From: a virus
Length of the DNA stretch: 64,000 bases
Strand: one strand, 5' to 3'
IMG/VR virus record: IMGVR_UViG_3300023184_000030
Location: 108,850-172,849 of that record
Both the position numbers and the translations under genes were made by a program. Positions 16,879 through 55,806 of this stretch are shown here, piece after piece. Position 1 is the first letter of the stretch, and each line of letters begins with the position of its first letter. The notes beneath the pieces were generated by a model. It made no database searches, was not told the DNA's origin, and worked only from the letters and a program-made list of their open reading frames with translations.

Positions 16879-18843
16879 TTATCTTTTTGGAAATTTTTGC
16901 TCAAGTGCAGAAGCAATATAATTCATATAATCTGAAGAATACGCTTGTGGTTTTGCAGTCTCGGCTACATTTTCACTCTCGTCAAGTTTTTGTACTCCAA
17001 CCAATTTAGCTCCAAGCTGACGTGTTGACCAGAAATTTTTGATCTGGTAAGGTGTATCTAAATTATAGAAGTTTGACTGAGCAACAATTGATTGCTGATG
17101 TCCTTCTGATAAAGATTCCCATACCGGAGCATATTCTGCTGGCATTTCGTCAATAAACTTAAGACCTGTTTTAGTGGTGTCGTCTGACTCGTTAAGAGCT
17201 GTTTCGTTAGCCTTTTGTGTTTCGGCTGGTGTTGTTACTGCTTTAGCAGCTTCGTTGATATTTGAAGCGGTTTTTTGTGTTTTAACCGATTCTATTAATG
17301 AATCAATCTGTGAAGTTAAGTTCTCGTAGTTTCCAGCAAAGCCAGATTCATTAAGACCTGCTTCTGCAGATAGATTTACATTTTCTACTAATGATGTGGT
17401 ATTATCAGAAGGCAATTTATTAGCAATTGATTCTGCGATATACTCACTGTAAGCAATACCTTTGTTTAATTTCTCTGCAAGGTATTCTGAATAGTCTAAT
17501 CCTTTATTAACATTCTCTGCTAAGTAATCAGAATATTCGATATTTTTGTTTAGGTTTTCTGCAATGTACTCAGTGTATTCGATTCCGTTGTTTAATTTTT
17601 CTGCAACGTACTCCGTATAAGCAATACCTTTATCTAAGTTTTCACCTAAGTATTCTGAATAAGCAATACCTTTATCTACGTTTTCTGCTAAGTACTCAGA
17701 GTATTGAATATTTTGATCCAATTTTTCTGCTAGGTATTTAGAATATTCGATATTCTTATCTACGCTCTCAGCTACATACTCAGAATAAGAAATAGATTTA
17801 TCAACATTCTCAGCTAGATATTTAGCATAAGAAATATTTTTATCTAGATTTTCAGCCAAATATTTACTGTAGTTGATAGTGCTGTCTAAGTTTTCTGCAA
17901 GGTATTCACCATACTTAATAGAATTCTCTAAGTTTTCTGCTAAATACTCTGCATATTTTTCAAGCTTAGCAACTCTTTCCTCAAGAGCTTCATTGGCCTT
18001 ACTTAAATCTTCAGATTCAGTTAGCGATGTTTTTTGGGTTTTAGCCTCTGCGATAGCGGCTCTCATCGAATCCATTTCCTTTTTCAAGAAGACTGAATAC
18101 TGATTAAGCTCCTCCGCAGTAACAAATTCATTGTTCTCCATAAGGACTGATTTATTTTTATTGTCTGATTTATTCACGATTTTATTGAATTCTTCGTTAT
18201 TTTCAACTTTATATATCTTCAATGAAGATTCTTTTTCGATACCTAAAGATTCATTTAAGCATTCTAATGTATTTAATATGCTATTATTCTTTATATCCTG
18301 AAATTGCTGTGATGAAAAGCCTTCACTTTCGTAAACTCTTTCAAGCTGAGCATCTTTAAATCCAGGATCTGCTACTAGATCATAGGTAAAGATTTTTTTA
18401 ATTGCCACTTTTTTATCGTTACCAACAGATCCAGCTGCTCTTGAAGAAATAGAAAGGGGAACACCAGCATCTACCAGGTTCTTAGCTATTCTACCCGCTG
18501 GGGTATCAAGAAGCTTCACTTTTATTTTAAGATCTCTCTTACCTTTATCATAATTAAGATCCGTGATCATATGAGAGATGTTCTTAAGCGATACGTCAAA
18601 TTTCTCGGGGTGATCTAATTCACCAACTAATCTATTCTGAGCTATCTTATCTTTTAGATAATCTAGATGAGGTAAATATTCACTCTCTTCATAAATTCTA
18701 TTGTTGTTGTTTTCTTTACCGAAAACAGCAGCAATACCTTCTAGGATATAATCATCTGTATCAGACTTTTTAGCTTCTAGAACGGAATTCTGTCTTTCAA
18801 GGATGAATACCATGTTTTCATTTATTGATTGTAGTTGTGGCAT
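16879..18843 (-). CDS. gp21: Prohead protease (T4 gp21-like) fused to a long repeat/scaffold domain
   Basis: NNNNRIY, GELDHP (His), DTPAG, ISSRAAG (Ser), YDLVADPG; C-terminal coiled-coil repeats; directly upstream of the capsid gene. Confidence 0.9.
   Translation of the reverse strand: MPQLQSINENMVFILERQNSVLEAKKSDTDDYILEGIAAVFGKENNNNRIYEESEYLPHLDYLKDKIAQNRLVGELDHPEKFDVSLKNISHMITDLNYDKGKRDLKIKVKLLDTPAGRIAKNLVDAGVPLSISSRAAGSVGNDKKVAIKKIFTYDLVADPGFKDAQLERVYESEGFSSQQFQDIKNNSILNTLECLNESLGIEKESSLKIYKVENNEEFNKIVNKSDNKNKSVLMENNEFVTAEELNQYSVFLKKEMDSMRAAIAEAKTQKTSLTESEDLSKANEALEERVAKLEKYAEYLAENLENSIKYGEYLAENLDSTINYSKYLAENLDKNISYAKYLAENVDKSISYSEYVAESVDKNIEYSKYLAEKLDQNIQYSEYLAENVDKGIAYSEYLGENLDKGIAYTEYVAEKLNNGIEYTEYIAENLNKNIEYSDYLAENVNKGLDYSEYLAEKLNKGIAYSEYIAESIANKLPSDNTTSLVENVNLSAEAGLNESGFAGNYENLTSQIDSLIESVKTQKTASNINEAAKAVTTPAETQKANETALNESDDTTKTGLKFIDEMPAEYAPVWESLSEGHQQSIVAQSNFYNLDTPYQIKNFWSTRQLGAKLVGVQKLDESENVAETAKPQAYSSDYMNYIASALEQKFPKR
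17425..17959 (-). repeat. 13 tandem 42-bp (14-aa) coding repeats, consensus xYSEYLAENLDKxI
   Basis: Read directly from the translation. Confidence 0.9.
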
Positions 18844-18871: not shown

Positions 18872-18879
18872 TATATATC
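18872..18879 (-). promoter_or_regulatory. Putative late promoter GATATATA for the protease-capsid operon
   Basis: Recurrent motif about 30 nt upstream of the ATG. Confidence 0.7.
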
Positions 18880-29821: not shown

Positions 29822-31435
29822 TTATAAAGTTACTTCTGGTGCTTTCTCTTCGTCACCTTCAGCTGGAGCAGCTTCACCTTCAGCACCTTCGGCTTTAGGA
29901 GCTTCTTTTGCCTCTTTTTTCTTGTAATTTTCGTTAGCTGCTAATTGATCTGGAGTTAATCCGAGATATCTTTGGATAAGGTAATCATTATCAAAATATG
30001 CTTTTTCTTCCTCGCCAGCTTTAACCTTAAGCTCTCCTAGACCTTTGATGAATTCACTTCTTTTAGAAAAATTGGTTAATTGAACCATCTCTTCGAATTC
30101 GCTCTCCCTATGGAAATCTAATCCAAGATTTGTTTTAAAGCTTCTATCTCTAGATAGCTCAGGAAAATCTAAACACATCTGAATGTATAAAGGCTTTACC
30201 AATATCTCCTGAAATATTGATCTTAATCTTCTTAGAAATTTCTCGAATCTTATCTCATCTCTTTCCAATTGATCTATTCCTGTCTGATAATTAACTGGGC
30301 CAGAAGCTCTAGATGCAAACCTAGCATAAGGTATCTTCGAATCCATTTTAAGCTTATTATAGAAATAAAGAACATTATCCATAACGTTGAAATCAGGTCC
30401 GCTTGGATTAAGAGACTCGATTTGAGGTGATTGACCATTCTGTTCTGGAAATAGGTAGTTTTTATAAAACTGAACCTTAGGTCTTCCATTAACTGTTAAT
30501 TCTCCTGATGCGTCATTAATTGCGATATCTTCCTTATAGTTTGACATTAGCTGTCCTAAAGTTTGCATCGCTTTTTGTGGAGATTGGCTTCCTGTTGGTA
30601 TAATGAACTTAAGCCTATAAGAAGCATTCATAACATTCCAGATTATTCTGGAGTTTTCCATAATTCTAAGAATGTTATACGATCTAACTAATCTCTCAAT
30701 ATAGCTAACTCTAGATACGCTGTTTCCTTTAGCATATGAGATATAGACAATCTGCTCATTGGTGAGCTTTCTGGTCATTTGAGGATTCTTTGGGTATTGG
30801 ATCCAAAATTGCTGATATTCGTTTTCACCTATTTTTTCAACCGCTGGCTGAAGTGAAGAAGCATCTAATTCTTTGAATCCTATTATCTCCTTACCCTTAT
30901 TGTCATAGATAATCTCAAAAGCAAGAAATCCATCTATTAGGAACTGTTTAAAATATTGCCATCCTAGTATAGAATTCTGAAATCCAAAAACATTATAAAT
31001 CCTGTTATAATGATCGGCTATCTTATCCTTTACCTTTTCCTTAATATCTAGATTAATGAAAGAAGGATTAGCAAAATAATTTCTATCGTCGTATGTGATA
31101 GATTCGTCTGTAATAGTATCAAGTATAAATTCAATTTCTCCATTTAGTGAAAATTTTCTTAAGAAGTTTCTTTTTTCTATATAATCCTTATCAAAATAAG
31201 CAATATATTTTCTTACCTTAGTATCCTGATAGGAAGCTGTCCAATAGAAAGCATCATCCTGAGTAAACCCAGTTCCTTGCTGAGAGAAAGCTCCTTCAGT
31301 TTTACCTATAGCCTGAGAGTTTCTAACGACCATATCGTCATACTGCATACCAAACTTGGAAACCTTCCCGAGGTTCCTTATTATGTTGCCTAGAGCTGAC
31401 TCGTTAGGTCTTAAAAAATCTAAAAATCCTGCCAT
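29822..31435 (-). CDS. gp20: Portal protein, paralogue B (T4 gp20-like)
   Basis: FLIDG.LAFEI, SYIERLVRSYNILRIMENSRIIW, YFYNKL..SKIPYARF, RDEIRFEKFL.RLRS.F. Confidence 0.9.
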   Translation of the reverse strand: MAGFLDFLRPNESALGNIIRNLGKVSKFGMQYDDMVVRNSQAIGKTEGAFSQQGTGFTQDDAFYWTASYQDTKVRKYIAYFDKDYIEKRNFLRKFSLNGEIEFILDTITDESITYDDRNYFANPSFINLDIKEKVKDKIADHYNRIYNVFGFQNSILGWQYFKQFLIDGFLAFEIIYDNKGKEIIGFKELDASSLQPAVEKIGENEYQQFWIQYPKNPQMTRKLTNEQIVYISYAKGNSVSRVSYIERLVRSYNILRIMENSRIIWNVMNASYRLKFIIPTGSQSPQKAMQTLGQLMSNYKEDIAINDASGELTVNGRPKVQFYKNYLFPEQNGQSPQIESLNPSGPDFNVMDNVLYFYNKLKMDSKIPYARFASRASGPVNYQTGIDQLERDEIRFEKFLRRLRSIFQEILVKPLYIQMCLDFPELSRDRSFKTNLGLDFHRESEFEEMVQLTNFSKRSEFIKGLGELKVKAGEEEKAYFDNDYLIQRYLGLTPDQLAANENYKKKEAKEAPKAEGAEGEAAPAEGDEEKAPEVTL

Positions 31436-31444
31436 TTCTTATTT

Positions 31445-33055
31445 TTATAATGTTACCTCTGGTGCTTTTTCTTCCCCTTCTTCACCCTTCTCTCCGCCTT
31501 CTTTCTTCTCCGCCTTCTTCTTTTCCTTCTCTTTTCTCTCCATGGCTTCCTTGTTTGCAATGATATCTTGTCTAGACATACCAAGGAATGTTTCAATAAG
31601 AAATGCAGTAGAGAAATAGGGTTTTTCTTCGTCTCCAACTAATCCTGCCATAGCAGTAACAGATTCTTTTCTTTTGTTTATCACGTCCATTTCTTGATTG
31701 ATCTTAAATGGATTATCAGAAAAATAATCAAGTCCTAATTGACTTTTAAACATGAAGTCTTTTTCCAAATGAGTATATTTCTTAGCCATCTGAATCCAGA
31801 GTGGCTTAGTTAATATCTCTTGAAATACAGATCTTAATCTTTCGATAAATTTGGCAAATCTTACTTCCTCCTTGTCCAATCCTTCTGCACCGTTAGAATA
31901 AGGGGAGGTATTACCGCCATCAGGGGTATGAAATCTAGAAGGCGGAACTTTTGATTCCTGAACAAACTTATCAAAGAAATATGATAAAGGTGCTGGATCA
32001 TTCAAGTTAGGTCCTTCAGTATTAACAGGCTCGATAGTAGGTGTACCATTAACACCAGAAGGCATCAGATAGTTCTTATAGAACTGTATTTTAGGTTTAC
32101 CGTCTACTAGTAATTCTCCGCTATCGTCATTTAGCTGAATATCTTCCTTATAGATACTCATAAGTTCGCCTAGTGTCTGCATCCCCTTTTGTGGTGATTT
32201 AGTACCAATAGGAACTGTCATCTTTAATCTGAACGAAGAATTCATTACTGACCATATAATTCTGGTATATTCTATAATCCTCAGAATATTATAAGGTCTA
32301 ATCAATCTCTCAATATAACTTACTCTAGAGATCGAGTTTCCTTTAGCATATGATATGTAAATTATCTGGGGATCGTAAAGTACTCTTCTTCTTTTTGGAT
32401 CCTGAGGGAATTGTGTCCATGTATTGATAAACGTACCATCTATTTGTTTCTCAACCGATGGCACAATAGTAACCGGATCTAATTCTTTGAATCCTACGAT
32501 ATACTTACCGTCATTATCATAGATTATCTCAAAGCATAAAAATCCATCAACTAAAAACTGTCTGAAATATTGCCAGCCAGTTATATCGTCACTGAATCCC
32601 CATATATCATAAAGCTTTTTGTAATTCTCATATAACTCATCTTTAAGCTTCTCGTTGATGTTTGTTATATCAATAAAGTCTGGATATGCAAAAAAGTTAG
32701 CAGGATCATAAGATATAGCTTCATCACATATCGTATCAAGTACCCATTCTATTTCTGGATTAAGCGAAAACTTTCTCAAATAATCTCTTTTTCCCTTATA
32801 GTCCTTGTCAAAGTAAGAAATGAATTGTCTTGTAGTGATATCCTGCTTTGCTAACGTCCAAAGCATGCTTTCGTCTTCTACATTAGCCTTATTCTTATTT
32901 AAGAACGCAGCTTCTGTTACACCAACTGCTTGTGAATTTCTGATGACCATGTCATCATACTTCATACCAAAAGTACTCAGCTTTCTCACCGATTCTCTAA
33001 TCCTCTGTATAACAGGGGATTGGGATGGATCATTATTATCTACAAAACCGGCCAT
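31445..33055 (-). CDS. gp20: Portal protein, paralogue A (T4 gp20-like)
   Basis: Same motifs as 29822..31435 over the full length; GATATATA at 33114-33121. Confidence 0.9.
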   Translation of the reverse strand: MAGFVDNNDPSQSPVIQRIRESVRKLSTFGMKYDDMVIRNSQAVGVTEAAFLNKNKANVEDESMLWTLAKQDITTRQFISYFDKDYKGKRDYLRKFSLNPEIEWVLDTICDEAISYDPANFFAYPDFIDITNINEKLKDELYENYKKLYDIWGFSDDITGWQYFRQFLVDGFLCFEIIYDNDGKYIVGFKELDPVTIVPSVEKQIDGTFINTWTQFPQDPKRRRVLYDPQIIYISYAKGNSISRVSYIERLIRPYNILRIIEYTRIIWSVMNSSFRLKMTVPIGTKSPQKGMQTLGELMSIYKEDIQLNDDSGELLVDGKPKIQFYKNYLMPSGVNGTPTIEPVNTEGPNLNDPAPLSYFFDKFVQESKVPPSRFHTPDGGNTSPYSNGAEGLDKEEVRFAKFIERLRSVFQEILTKPLWIQMAKKYTHLEKDFMFKSQLGLDYFSDNPFKINQEMDVINKRKESVTAMAGLVGDEEKPYFSTAFLIETFLGMSRQDIIANKEAMERKEKEKKKAEKKEGGEKGEEGEEKAPEVTL

Positions 33056-33087: not shown

Positions 33088-33693
33088 TCAAATTAATTTC
33101 GATTGATATTCCTTATATATCCCTGCTATATCTAAGCCCTCTACTTGGGATTTTCTAAGATATGGTAATTTATACCAATCACCAAGATCTAAAATGCTGA
33201 TCTCTCTTATGAATGATGTCTTAAATCCAAAAACTGCAGACTCATAACCTGTACCTAAAAGAATTTTTTTAAGATTCCGATTTGTTAAAGGCAAGGGAGT
33301 TATTGCTCCCCCTTTTGTGTAATGATTCTGATTCTTCTCTATGAGACTACCAAAGCTATCGTATATTTTACCTAATATTTTCAGCCTATATTCGGGAGGG
33401 GTTACTATTAGGTCTATACCAGAGAGTATAACACCATTCTCCTTTGTCTGGTAGGAATCAGTACATAGTACTATTGGGTTTCTGTCTATAAACTTTCTTT
33501 TCTCAGTGATCTCACTGTCTGTGGGATAAGGGAAAGAGTATATCTCGCCTGGTATAAACGGAGGAGAGAACTTTTTTTCTGATTTTCCCCCTTGGAAATA
33601 CTTTTTTGAAAATATATCATCAGTATTCTTTACAAGATCTGCAATACTGGGGAATTCTTTTTTATATTCTAATACTAATTCTGAATATGTCAT
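33088..33693 (-). CDS. DNA end-protector protein (T4 gp2-like)
   Basis: PGEIYSF.Y...FIDRNPIVL...GIDL..PP.YR resembles gp2; adjacent to the gp4-like gene. Confidence 0.6.
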   Translation of the reverse strand: MTYSELVLEYKKEFPSIADLVKNTDDIFSKKYFQGGKSEKKFSPPFIPGEIYSFPYPTDSEITEKRKFIDRNPIVLCTDSYQTKENGVILSGIDLIVTPPEYRLKILGKIYDSFGSLIEKNQNHYTKGGAITPLPLTNRNLKKILLGTGYESAVFGFKTSFIREISILDLGDWYKLPYLRKSQVEGLDIAGIYKEYQSKLI

Positions 33694-37329: not shown

Positions 37330-37413
37330 GGTCTTTTGTTTTTTTAATCTTTTTATATATCCATGTTATGGATAGAAACTTTTTACTATATATTTAAACT
37401 ATGTAGCATTTTA

Positions 37414-46020: not shown

Positions 46021-46596
46021 TTACATAAACAAATCTTCCCAGTAATCACATATCCATGATGCAGATACCGTGTAGATAGCTGGATTTTCGTAATCTAACT
46101 GCATATCATTAATAGCAGTACTGATAAAGCAAGAAGGTATTCTAATTCTTCTAAATACATCTCCTCTTTTATTAAATATTGAGATAACCATAGAACCAAC
46201 ATAATCGCTCTTAATACCCATCGCACCGGTTAGCGGGTTATAGATCAAATCGCTCCATTGTCTAAGTATCTTATAAACACTCATTGAATTTACGTCATTT
46301 AAGTTGACCTCAAATTCCATTGTTAATGTCATATCACTGGTAGTAGGCTCACCTGCAGCATATCTTCTTTGAGCAAACTTGTAGGTTTGTTCAACGTTTC
46401 CGTTTGCTAAAATATCTACAGCCAAACCAGTTATAGATTTAACCTGTTGTGCTAAAATTGATTCTCCCTTGAAAGTCGTGTTAGCATCTACTATTCCCGA
46501 AGGAGGCGTGATCAAAACCTCAAATTGGTTAAGATATACCGGTTCATAGTTGTTTATCGCGGCTTTAGAATTTGTATAATGTGGTAAACCTGCCAT
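46021..46596 (-). CDS. gp19: Tail tube protein, paralogue B (gp19-like)
   Basis: EPVYLNQFEV...RQWSDLIYNPLTG.MG.K.DY...DYWED. Confidence 0.85.
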   Translation of the reverse strand: MAGLPHYTNSKAAINNYEPVYLNQFEVLITPPSGIVDANTTFKGESILAQQVKSITGLAVDILANGNVEQTYKFAQRRYAAGEPTTSDMTLTMEFEVNLNDVNSMSVYKILRQWSDLIYNPLTGAMGIKSDYVGSMVISIFNKRGDVFRRIRIPSCFISTAINDMQLDYENPAIYTVSASWICDYWEDLFM

Positions 46597-46613: not shown

Positions 46614-47168
46614 TTATAAGAATAAATCATCCCAATAATCAACTGCCCAAGTCATATCATCTATTTTGAATATATCGGTCGAGGTGTAATTAAGATTCAT
46701 TTCACTTATTGCTTTAGTAGGATAGCAGTCTCTGCATGTTATTCTTCTGAAAACGTCCCCTTGTTTATTAAAGATAGAAACTACAATAGTACCCGTATAG
46801 TCATTCTTGAGGCCCATTGCTCCTGTTAATGGATTATAAATTAAATCACTCCATTGTCTCAATGTTTTAAAAACATACATTGAGTTGTCATCATTTAAGT
46901 TGACGGTAAAGCTTAAACTTAAATCCAGATAGGTATTATCGGGTTTAGCACCAGCATAATTTCTTTTAGCAAACTTATACTTTTGCGTAACCAGTCCTGG
47001 GTTTTTATCTAAGGTAAGACCTCCAACCTTTGTTACTTGCTGAAGGAGTATTTCTCCACCGATAACAGCAGAGGGTGGTATAACCGTAACCTCAAACTGA
47101 TTCAGGTAAACAGGTTCATACTTGTTTATTGCTGATAGTGAATTTTGATAATGTGATAGTCCTGCCAT
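46614..47168 (-). CDS. gp19: Tail tube protein, paralogue A (gp19-like)
   Basis: Same motifs; directly after the sheath gene; GATAAATA at 47179-47186. Confidence 0.85.
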   Translation of the reverse strand: MAGLSHYQNSLSAINKYEPVYLNQFEVTVIPPSAVIGGEILLQQVTKVGGLTLDKNPGLVTQKYKFAKRNYAGAKPDNTYLDLSLSFTVNLNDDNSMYVFKTLRQWSDLIYNPLTGAMGLKNDYTGTIVVSIFNKQGDVFRRITCRDCYPTKAISEMNLNYTSTDIFKIDDMTWAVDYWDDLFL

Positions 47169-50565: not shown

Positions 50566-50638
50566 TATTTTTTAAGATATTTTTTGCTTCTTTACTATAT
50601 ATCGAAATAGAAAGTAGAATATTAGATCCGTTGCATGT

Positions 50639-55754: not shown

Positions 55755-55806
55755 TATTTAGTAGATATCTTTTCTTTATATATCCACTTAAATAAATAAG
55801 AGAAGC

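Follow-up and report, generated by a model that had tools for sequence, protein, structure and literature searches.

What two adjacent portal genes do in one phage genome is the question raised by this locus. To our knowledge, all portals studied in tailed phages and herpesviruses are dodecameric rings of a single protein, and models of head nucleation, of DNA gating and of the symmetry mismatches (12:5 and 12:6) assume identical portal subunits. The stretch of DNA analyzed here (64,000 nt; hereafter, the window) is part of a 173-kb viral record from IMG/VR and carries, on its minus strand, the following features.

31445–33055, minus strand: upstream portal paralogue (copy A), T4 gp20 family, 536 aa (ORF and translation, PF07230, AF2 model, tree clade)
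29822–31435, minus strand: downstream portal paralogue (copy B), T4 gp20 family, 537 aa (ORF and translation, PF07230, phmmer, AF2 model, tree clade)
31436–31444, minus strand: spacer of 9 nt from the stop codon of A to the ATG of B (sequence)

A preliminary description of this DNA had reported two adjacent, intact gp20-like ORFs of these lengths, diverged but alignable and 9 nt apart, and each of these points was borne out. BLASTP aligned A and B over their full length with 275 of 540 positions identical (51%) and 7 gaps, and both proteins matched PF07230 Portal_T4 (A: E 7.5e-58, 196.7 bits; B: E 5e-68, 230.2 bits; cut-off 22.9 bits) as well as the portal family PHROG 213. A phmmer search with B matched the T4 gp20 chains 3JA7 and 6UZC (~2e-24), and T4 gp20 chains were also the top PDB matches in Foldseek when the AF2 model of A was the query (E 3.6e-19, probability 1.0, TM 0.53–0.60). 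The helix and strand order of the B model is the same as in the A model; both models are monomers, with clip and stem at low confidence (pLDDT 40–70). On sequence and predicted structure, A and B are thus bona fide portal-family proteins with a portal fold of wing, stem, clip and crown, the family and fold of T4 gp20 (PF07230; PDB 3JA7, 6UZC, 9MKB, 9LU6/9LU7). No other paralogue pair in the record comes close to them in length (all-against-all BLAST). A megablast search of GenBank phages with the portal pair as query returned no match, and the nearest named relatives, at 27–43% identity, are LR756500, LR756501, LR756504, the Lak phages and Tenacibaculum phage PTm1. The three LR entries reportedly stem from the 2020 study of Al-Shayeb et al.

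The surroundings of the pair are those of a T4-like late gene region. Two features directly upstream of A bear on its expression and synteny.

33114–33121, minus strand: GATATATA, candidate late-promoter element, 59 nt ahead of the start codon of A (motif distribution in the window)
33088–33693, minus strand: gene for a gp2-like DNA end protector, immediately upstream and a conserved neighbor (PHROG 429, E 3e-4)

The window has 13 copies of GATATATA, all on the coding strand and mostly just upstream of structural genes, a distribution that makes the motif a candidate late promoter. No copy was found between A and B, nor was there a terminator-like site on the minus strand in that interval, and the spacer measures 1–23 nt in all relatives. 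Because the spacer contains neither a promoter-like nor a terminator-like site, A and B are probably co-transcribed in a single late transcript. Orthologues of the gp2-like neighbor in relatives are recorded with PF26869 (Phage_T4_gp2), and the same gp2-portal arrangement occurs in lineages P0004, P0005, P0007 and P0008 and in the annotation of PTm1. The late genes of the window are T4-like, with gp2-like, gp4-like and gp55-like genes upstream of the portal pair, and genes for a gp23-like capsid protein, a gp21-like protease-scaffold, the terminase large subunit, sheath and tube. The tail-tube gene is also duplicated in the clade that carries the portal pair.

We compared related IMG/VR loci for the presence of the two genes. 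The up-down pair was found in the same order in all 235 informative loci, the only exceptions being truncations at contig ends. It was present at 146 of 155 loci in the subclade of the window (the remaining nine are contig-end truncations) and at 81 of 81 in a second subclade (L172, L174–L253). A gp20-type portal is normally encoded by one gene per genome; the window's own record has two, and the three complete relatives (G001–G003, 348–434 kb) have exactly two each. In each of the 114 unique full pairs both copies were intact, and the sole broken copy seen lies on one 5-kb contig. We know of no cultured member of this clade.

In an IQ-TREE analysis (LG+C20), upstream copies formed one clade (SH-aLRT 99) and downstream copies another (90), and the two clades together excluded the outgroup portals (SH-aLRT 95), 11 representatives labelled 'single', with copy number checked for four of these lineages. 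One portal each was found in P0004, P0007 and P0008, all of which keep the gp2-portal synteny, and in LR756500 (=P0006) and PTm1; portals of related huge phages, encoded by one gene, branch outside the duplicated clade. LR756501 was considered as a two-portal genome and rejected, since its second match is a fragment of just 101 aa that lies at a great distance from the first. With an upstream clade, a downstream clade and single-copy relatives outside both, the tree shows that a T4 gp20-type portal gene was tandemly duplicated once, long ago, in the ancestor of the clade.

Branch lengths of the A and B clades after the duplication are about equal. NG86 estimates of omega are 0.015–0.046 for the upstream copy and 0.018–0.045 for the downstream copy, and dN of the two copies is tightly correlated (r=0.95, slope 0.91). 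Purifying selection is equally strong on both copies, and relaxed selection on one of them, which the preliminary description had named as evidence against its reading, was not seen.

The two proteins end in similar tails.

31448–31501, minus strand: tail of A, residues 519–536, Lys/Glu-rich linker followed by EEKAPEVTL (pLDDT <50, no secondary structure; tails of relatives)
29825–29896, minus strand: tail of B, residues 514–537, Ala/Glu/Gly/Pro-rich linker followed by EEKAPEVTL (pLDDT <50, no secondary structure; tails of relatives)

Each tail is predicted to be disordered and consists of an acidic linker that closes with a hydrophobic Φ-x-Φ tip. Of 114 unique genomes, 111 carry a strict Φ-[TKSNE]-Φ end (VTL, ITL, FTL, FKL, ATL or VTI) on one or both copies, and the remaining three have a hydrophobic last residue on both copies. 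At least one copy therefore has a hydrophobic end in 114 of 114 genomes, and none has lost both, even though lineages have shed the upstream tip on at least 4 occasions and altered the downstream one on at least 10. The variants PEVTL, PAVTL, PQVTL, PAVTI, TATL and EAVTL match between the copies of one genome, a match that is not significant in phylogenetically independent contrasts (at most 6 per trait; every sign test p ≥0.25). No other ORF in the 173-kb record (~63% complete) ends in an acidic linker plus Φ-T-L. T4 gp20 (...QDPDQEQEDF) and many single-copy relatives likewise end in an acidic tail whose last residue is hydrophobic, so that, judged by these sequences, the tail is no peculiarity of genomes with two copies. 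The tails of the clade are much longer than that of T4, with a low-complexity linker of ~20–60 residues and a Φ-x-Φ end compared to a single Phe in T4; among the single portals of related huge phages, many have a low-complexity tail with a hydrophobic end.

The common EEKAPEVTL after unlike charged linkers had been noted before, together with its different synonymous codons, and this observation holds: 3 of 9 codons differ between A and B, all synonymously (GAA/GAG, GAG/GAA, ACA/ACT). The conclusion drawn from it, selection on the peptide in place of recent copying, survives in part. In its favor, 40% of identical tail residues differ in codon, and several genomes encode an identical peptide with 4–5 of 9 codons differing (e.g., L090, L115). 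However, identical codons at identical tail residues number 182, compared to 134 expected from the gene body (60% vs 44%), and in some genomes 8–9 of 9 codons are identical (e.g., L121, L095). Because codon identity in the tails exceeds the gene-body expectation, some short-tract gene conversion probably contributes to the match. That repeated conversion of the adjacent 3' ends accounts for the shared nonapeptide in place of a common binding partner is a somewhat unlikely explanation: besides the residues that differ in codon, it leaves unexplained both the constant hydrophobic tip on at least one copy and the like tails of T4 and single-copy relatives.

A free C-terminal Φ-x-Φ after a flexible linker, as the tails have, is the mark of class II PDZ ligands. 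A search of the three complete relatives with PF13180 and PF17820 found no phage-encoded PDZ receptor that could read the tip; the control genomes all matched. Complex predictions of B residues 490–537 with the protease-scaffold fusion and with the gp2-like protein scored 0.00, which speaks neither way.

The maintenance of two portal copies suggests that the DNA gateway of the capsid is built from two different subunits. We put at about 0.5 the probability that A and B work in the same assembly, for which a mixed portal ring is the likeliest form. The tandem duplication of a T4 gp20-type gene took place once, in the ancestor of a large uncultured huge-phage clade with T4-like late genes. In this scenario, each product would be a complete and functional portal subunit, and both would probably be translated from a single late transcript. 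The two would together build one mixed ring at the unique vertex, and this ring would have six-fold symmetry if the subunits alternate (6+6). Each subunit would project its disordered acidic tail, with a Φ-x-Φ-COOH tip, into the capsid interior, because the C-terminus comes after the crown, the innermost part of the portal in T4, where the last 8 residues of gp20 are disordered (PMC4493910). The tip may dock onto a putative head-interior partner, and either subunit type could supply the tips. That the tip has been lost from either copy, and never from both, argues for such a heteromeric ring. The stricter version, an obligate A/B hetero-dodecamer (e.g., A6B6, six-fold) with tails supplied redundantly by either subunit and tethering an interior head component, we propose only tentatively, at slightly less than even odds.

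The distribution of conserved sites bears on whether the two proteins share a ring. Near-invariant columns common to A and B number 129 and cover all domains, including the stem/clip region. Only 7 fixed differences separate the copies, situated within or close to the stem, clip and tunnel-loop regions; in the alignment with T4, three fall on L336, G341 and A343, residues flanking R338 and K342, which contact DNA in the inner clip loop. These two basic residues of T4 are not conserved in B, whose aligned residues are E331 and Q335. Copy-specific conserved sites are more numerous in the upstream copy (19) than in the downstream copy (6). From an obligate alternating ring, more complementary interface changes than the 7 fixed differences might be expected.

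The same pattern could be read as two separate homo-dodecamers with different jobs, either a packaging/ejection portal plus a second ring that stacks on it or serves elsewhere in assembly, or alternative portals used per particle or condition. Each copy keeps every portal domain and the conserved core and could in principle self-assemble, the differences beside R338 and K342 could give the two channels different properties, and the excess of copy-specific sites in the upstream copy fits a division of this kind. Nevertheless, it is established that tailed-phage capsids have one portal vertex, the two genes are tightly coupled and evolve at equal rates under equal selection, and the loss of the tip from either copy but never both is easier to explain within one complex. 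We therefore regard separate rings as unlikely.

Avs4-type defense systems sense phage portal proteins, and one copy might accordingly be a spare or a decoy against such host sensors, and not an essential structural subunit. Faster evolution or loss would be expected of such a copy, whereas omega is 0.02–0.05 for both, the near-invariant sites extend through stem and clip in both, and no unique full pair has a broken member, all of which makes this role very improbable. An assembly artefact or very recent duplication, for which we found no support, is effectively ruled out by the 51% identity of the copies, by their occurrence on >200 independent contigs from many samples, by the presence of both genes in all in-clade relatives and by single-duplication trees in which the duplication predates orthologue divergence to ~52–57% identity.

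Compared to T4, in which one gene encodes a homo-dodecamer, this clade, known here from sequence, keeps two genes clade-wide. The mixed ring would have analogues elsewhere. T4 gp23 and gp24 are the products of a duplicated structural gene of which both copies are kept in one assembly, and the rings of the proteasome, CCT and the V-ATPase c-ring likewise became hetero-oligomeric after duplication with both copies retained. The parallel with T4 is incomplete in that gp24 occupies a distinct position (pentamers), whereas no such distinct position is known within the portal ring. We know of no portal example of a duplication leading to a hetero-oligomer. A literature search for portal paralogues or heteromeric portals yielded nothing relevant and no published description. 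A paper on 'moraphages', a lineage that may correspond to this clade, lists 25 genes in its portal orthologue group and does not mention duplication.

In this clade, two portal subunits have been kept under equal constraint until orthologues diverged as far as the paralogues. The tail pattern, present in T4 as well, points to a conserved but uncharacterized role of the disordered C-terminus of gp20-type portals. If the obligate hetero-dodecamer is correct, it would be the first hetero-oligomeric portal of any tailed virus, and the duplication of the tail-tube gene would then hint at a broader move towards rings of two subunits along the path of the DNA. A mixed ring would provide a clean case of a homomeric ring turned heteromeric after duplication, and the clade would serve as a natural experiment on which functions of a portal depend on twelve identical copies.

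Two complete portal genes lie in tandem on the minus strand of the window, which covers the final 64 kb of its 172,849-bp IMG/VR source record:

31445–33055, minus strand: upstream portal gene (A), 536 aa, PF07230 (E 7.5e-58)
29822–31435, minus strand: downstream portal gene (B), 537 aa, PF07230 (E 5e-68)

The A stop codon is separated by 9 nt from the B ATG, and the two proteins share 51% identity end to end with only 7 gap positions. ORF calls, alignment, and PF07230 matches agree in every detail with the preliminary description, which reported adjacent, fully alignable gp20-like ORFs. Both proteins match PHROG 213 (‘portal protein’), and their AlphaFold2 models show the same order of elements with a confident wing (pLDDT about 90); the best PDB matches of the A model are T4 gp20 chains (E 3.6e-19, TM 0.53–0.60). 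A common C-terminus, EEKAPEVTL, follows differing charged linkers in A and B, also as first described, and is encoded with synonymous differences at 3/9 codons.

To assess conservation, IMG/VR was searched with each portal protein, and both queries gave the same contigs. In the window’s group, 146 of 155 loci have an A-type ORF and then, 1–23 nt further on, a B-type ORF; each of the remaining nine is truncated by the end of its contig, with the start or end of the absent copy still visible in five. Behind the nearest more distant portal, P0003 (50% identical to A), a second portal gene begins after 9 nt, and all 80 IMG/VR relatives of P0003 carry tandem portals. Exactly two portal genes are present in each of three complete-rated genomes (348 kb; 430 and 434 kb, the latter two with terminal repeats). 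Relatives with a single portal, named in advance as a sign of recent duplication or an assembly artefact, were absent from the clade, in which all loci show the pair apart from contig-end truncations. A broken copy was found in one contig among about 235: in this 5-kb contig (L216:1542–3164), the upstream portal is interrupted, leaving two ORFs (327 and 178 aa; 102-nt gap), which could reflect a sequencing error or a real pseudogene.

An IQ-TREE analysis (LG+C20+F+G4) combined 31 upstream and 30 downstream copies with 11 representative outgroup portals, labelled ‘single’. Upstream and downstream copies each form one clade (SH-aLRT 99 and 90, respectively), which together exclude the 11 outgroup portals (SH-aLRT 95), and FastTree analysis of larger sets agreed. 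Each paralogue clade contains the same two subclades, the window’s group and P0003 with its relatives, between which orthologues are 52–57% identical, nearly as distant as the paralogues. The portal pair is thus, as judged from these trees, the product of one old duplication, and recent copying is not supported. Among the nearest lineages outside the clade, the three whose portal copy number was checked, P0004, P0007, and P0008, each carry one portal in the same gp2-portal synteny; LR756500, LR756501, PTm1, and T4 also have one. The 735-kb phage LR756501 additionally encodes, far from its one full portal gene, a 101-aa ORF (LR756501.1, 15166–15351; L162) whose match to the portal profile is confined to the profile’s last 58 positions.

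In GenBank, the closest phages are the huge metagenomic phages LR756500-504 (33–43% identity), Lak phages, and Tenacibaculum phage PTm1. Genes for gp55-like late sigma, gp4-like head-completion, and gp2-like DNA-end-protector proteins lie upstream of the portal pair, and DNA ligase and clamp loader genes lie downstream; the window also encodes a gp23-like capsid protein, terminase large subunit, tail sheath, tail-tube proteins, and a gp21-like protease fused to a repeat-rich scaffold region. Relevant features are:

33088–33693, minus strand: gp2-like DNA-end-protector gene, directly upstream of A
16879–18843, minus strand: prohead protease fusion (protease domain at residues about 19–290, plus 14-residue repeats)
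46021–46596 and 46614–47168, minus strand: tail-tube-like tandem paralogues (191 and 184 aa, 55% identical)
33114–33121, 18872–18879, 37354–37361, 50596–50603, and 55777–55784, minus strand: example sites of the octamer GATATATA

The octamer occurs 13 times in the window, compared to about 7 times expected by chance, always on the coding strand (13/13) and mostly shortly upstream of structural genes, making it a candidate late-promoter element. One copy lies 59 nt ahead of A. Because the motif search of the window found no copy between A and B, and no terminator-like site was found there on the minus strand, the pair looks like one late transcription unit. Portal genes of this clade, of single-portal relatives, and of PTm1 have a gp2-like gene directly upstream (including the window and loci L170, L172, L173, and L337); in a few clade members (L115, L120, L133), a gp4-like gene takes its place. 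The long repeat region of the protease fusion (consensus YSEYLAENLDKxIx), conserved across relatives, probably serves as a scaffold encoded in one ORF with the protease. The tail-tube-like paralogues, which lie a short way downstream of the sheath gene, recur as a pair in the three complete relatives and as one copy each in LR756500 and LR756501, the same phyletic pattern as the portal pair.

The last 18–24 residues of A and B lack structure in the models (pLDDT below 50). In the T4 portal, no part lies further inside than the crown, and the final 8 residues are disordered (PMC4493910); by analogy, the tails should point into the head. The C-terminus of T4 gp20 is likewise acidic and closes with Phe (...QDPDQEQEDF; L256:14600–14782, 3’ end of gene 20), and in many single-copy relatives a final F, L, Y, or W comes after an acidic or Gly-rich linker; by this comparison, the tail predates the duplicated clade and is not its invention. 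The tip within the clade consists of two hydrophobic residues around a variable one (VTL, ITL, FTL, FKL, ATL, VTI), and its fine variants (PEVTL, PAVTL, PQVTL, PAVTI, TATL, EAVTL) are usually identical on both copies of a genome. The initial reading of selection on the peptide rather than recent copying holds in part: 40% of identical tail residues use different codons in A and B, but codon identity at these residues (60%) exceeds that expected from the gene body (44%), and short gene conversions probably help to keep the tips alike. A phylogeny-respecting contrast test of tip co-variation was not significant, with too few independent changes, and this co-variation is suggestive only. Complementary tip retention is the stronger pattern. 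The upstream copy lacks the tip (ending PPQE, PPAT, or PAEA) in two subclades of the window’s group where the downstream copy keeps FTL/VTL, and the downstream copy lacks it in L080, L113, and most of the P0003 group; by parsimony, the tip changed at least 4 times in upstream copies and at least 10 times in downstream copies. At least one copy has a strict tip in 111/114 unique genomes, the other three have a hydrophobic last residue on both copies, and in no genome (0/114) do both lack it. Among ORFs of the source record (172,849 bp; 63% complete by CheckV), none other than A and B carries the tail, and profile searches (PF13180, PF17820) found no PDZ domain encoded in the three complete relatives.

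Relaxed selection, a possibility raised for one copy, was found in neither: Nei-Gojobori dN/dS between orthologues is 0.015–0.046 for A and 0.018–0.045 for B across dS bins, dN values of A and B are correlated over all genome pairs (r=0.95, slope 0.91), and post-duplication branch lengths are similar. In the 114 unique pairs, A and B share one residue at ≥90% conservation in 129 alignment columns, which are distributed across the N-terminus, wing, stem/clip, and crown. Only 7 columns are fixed differently. Three of these align with T4 L336, G341, and A343 in the inner clip loop (HMMER alignment), and another two sit where the tunnel-loop region ends.

Given that the genes always occur together, are equally constrained and probably co-transcribed, each encode a complete portal subunit, and have an interchangeable C-terminal feature, the best explanation for A and B is that both are subunits of a single assembly. 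A mixed portal ring would be its simplest form, and an alternating 6+6 ring would have six-fold symmetry, which it would share with the neck and tail parts docking on the T4 portal (PMC12929587; entry titles). Two separate homomeric rings with common partners are a plausible, less likely alternative; so few fixed differences give no indication that the interfaces are strongly specialised. That one copy is a spare or decoy is unlikely, because constraint on both is equal and strong.

Phrase searches of a paper library turned up no description of paralogous or heteromeric portals, and a broad jumbo-phage survey treated the portal as a single gp20 orthologue (PMC7824862). In the clade described here, the gp20 portal occurs as a conserved two-gene system, to which our analysis adds complementary loss of the tail tip, the ancestral character of a tail that T4 also has, a test of conversion versus selection, and the location of the fixed A/B differences.
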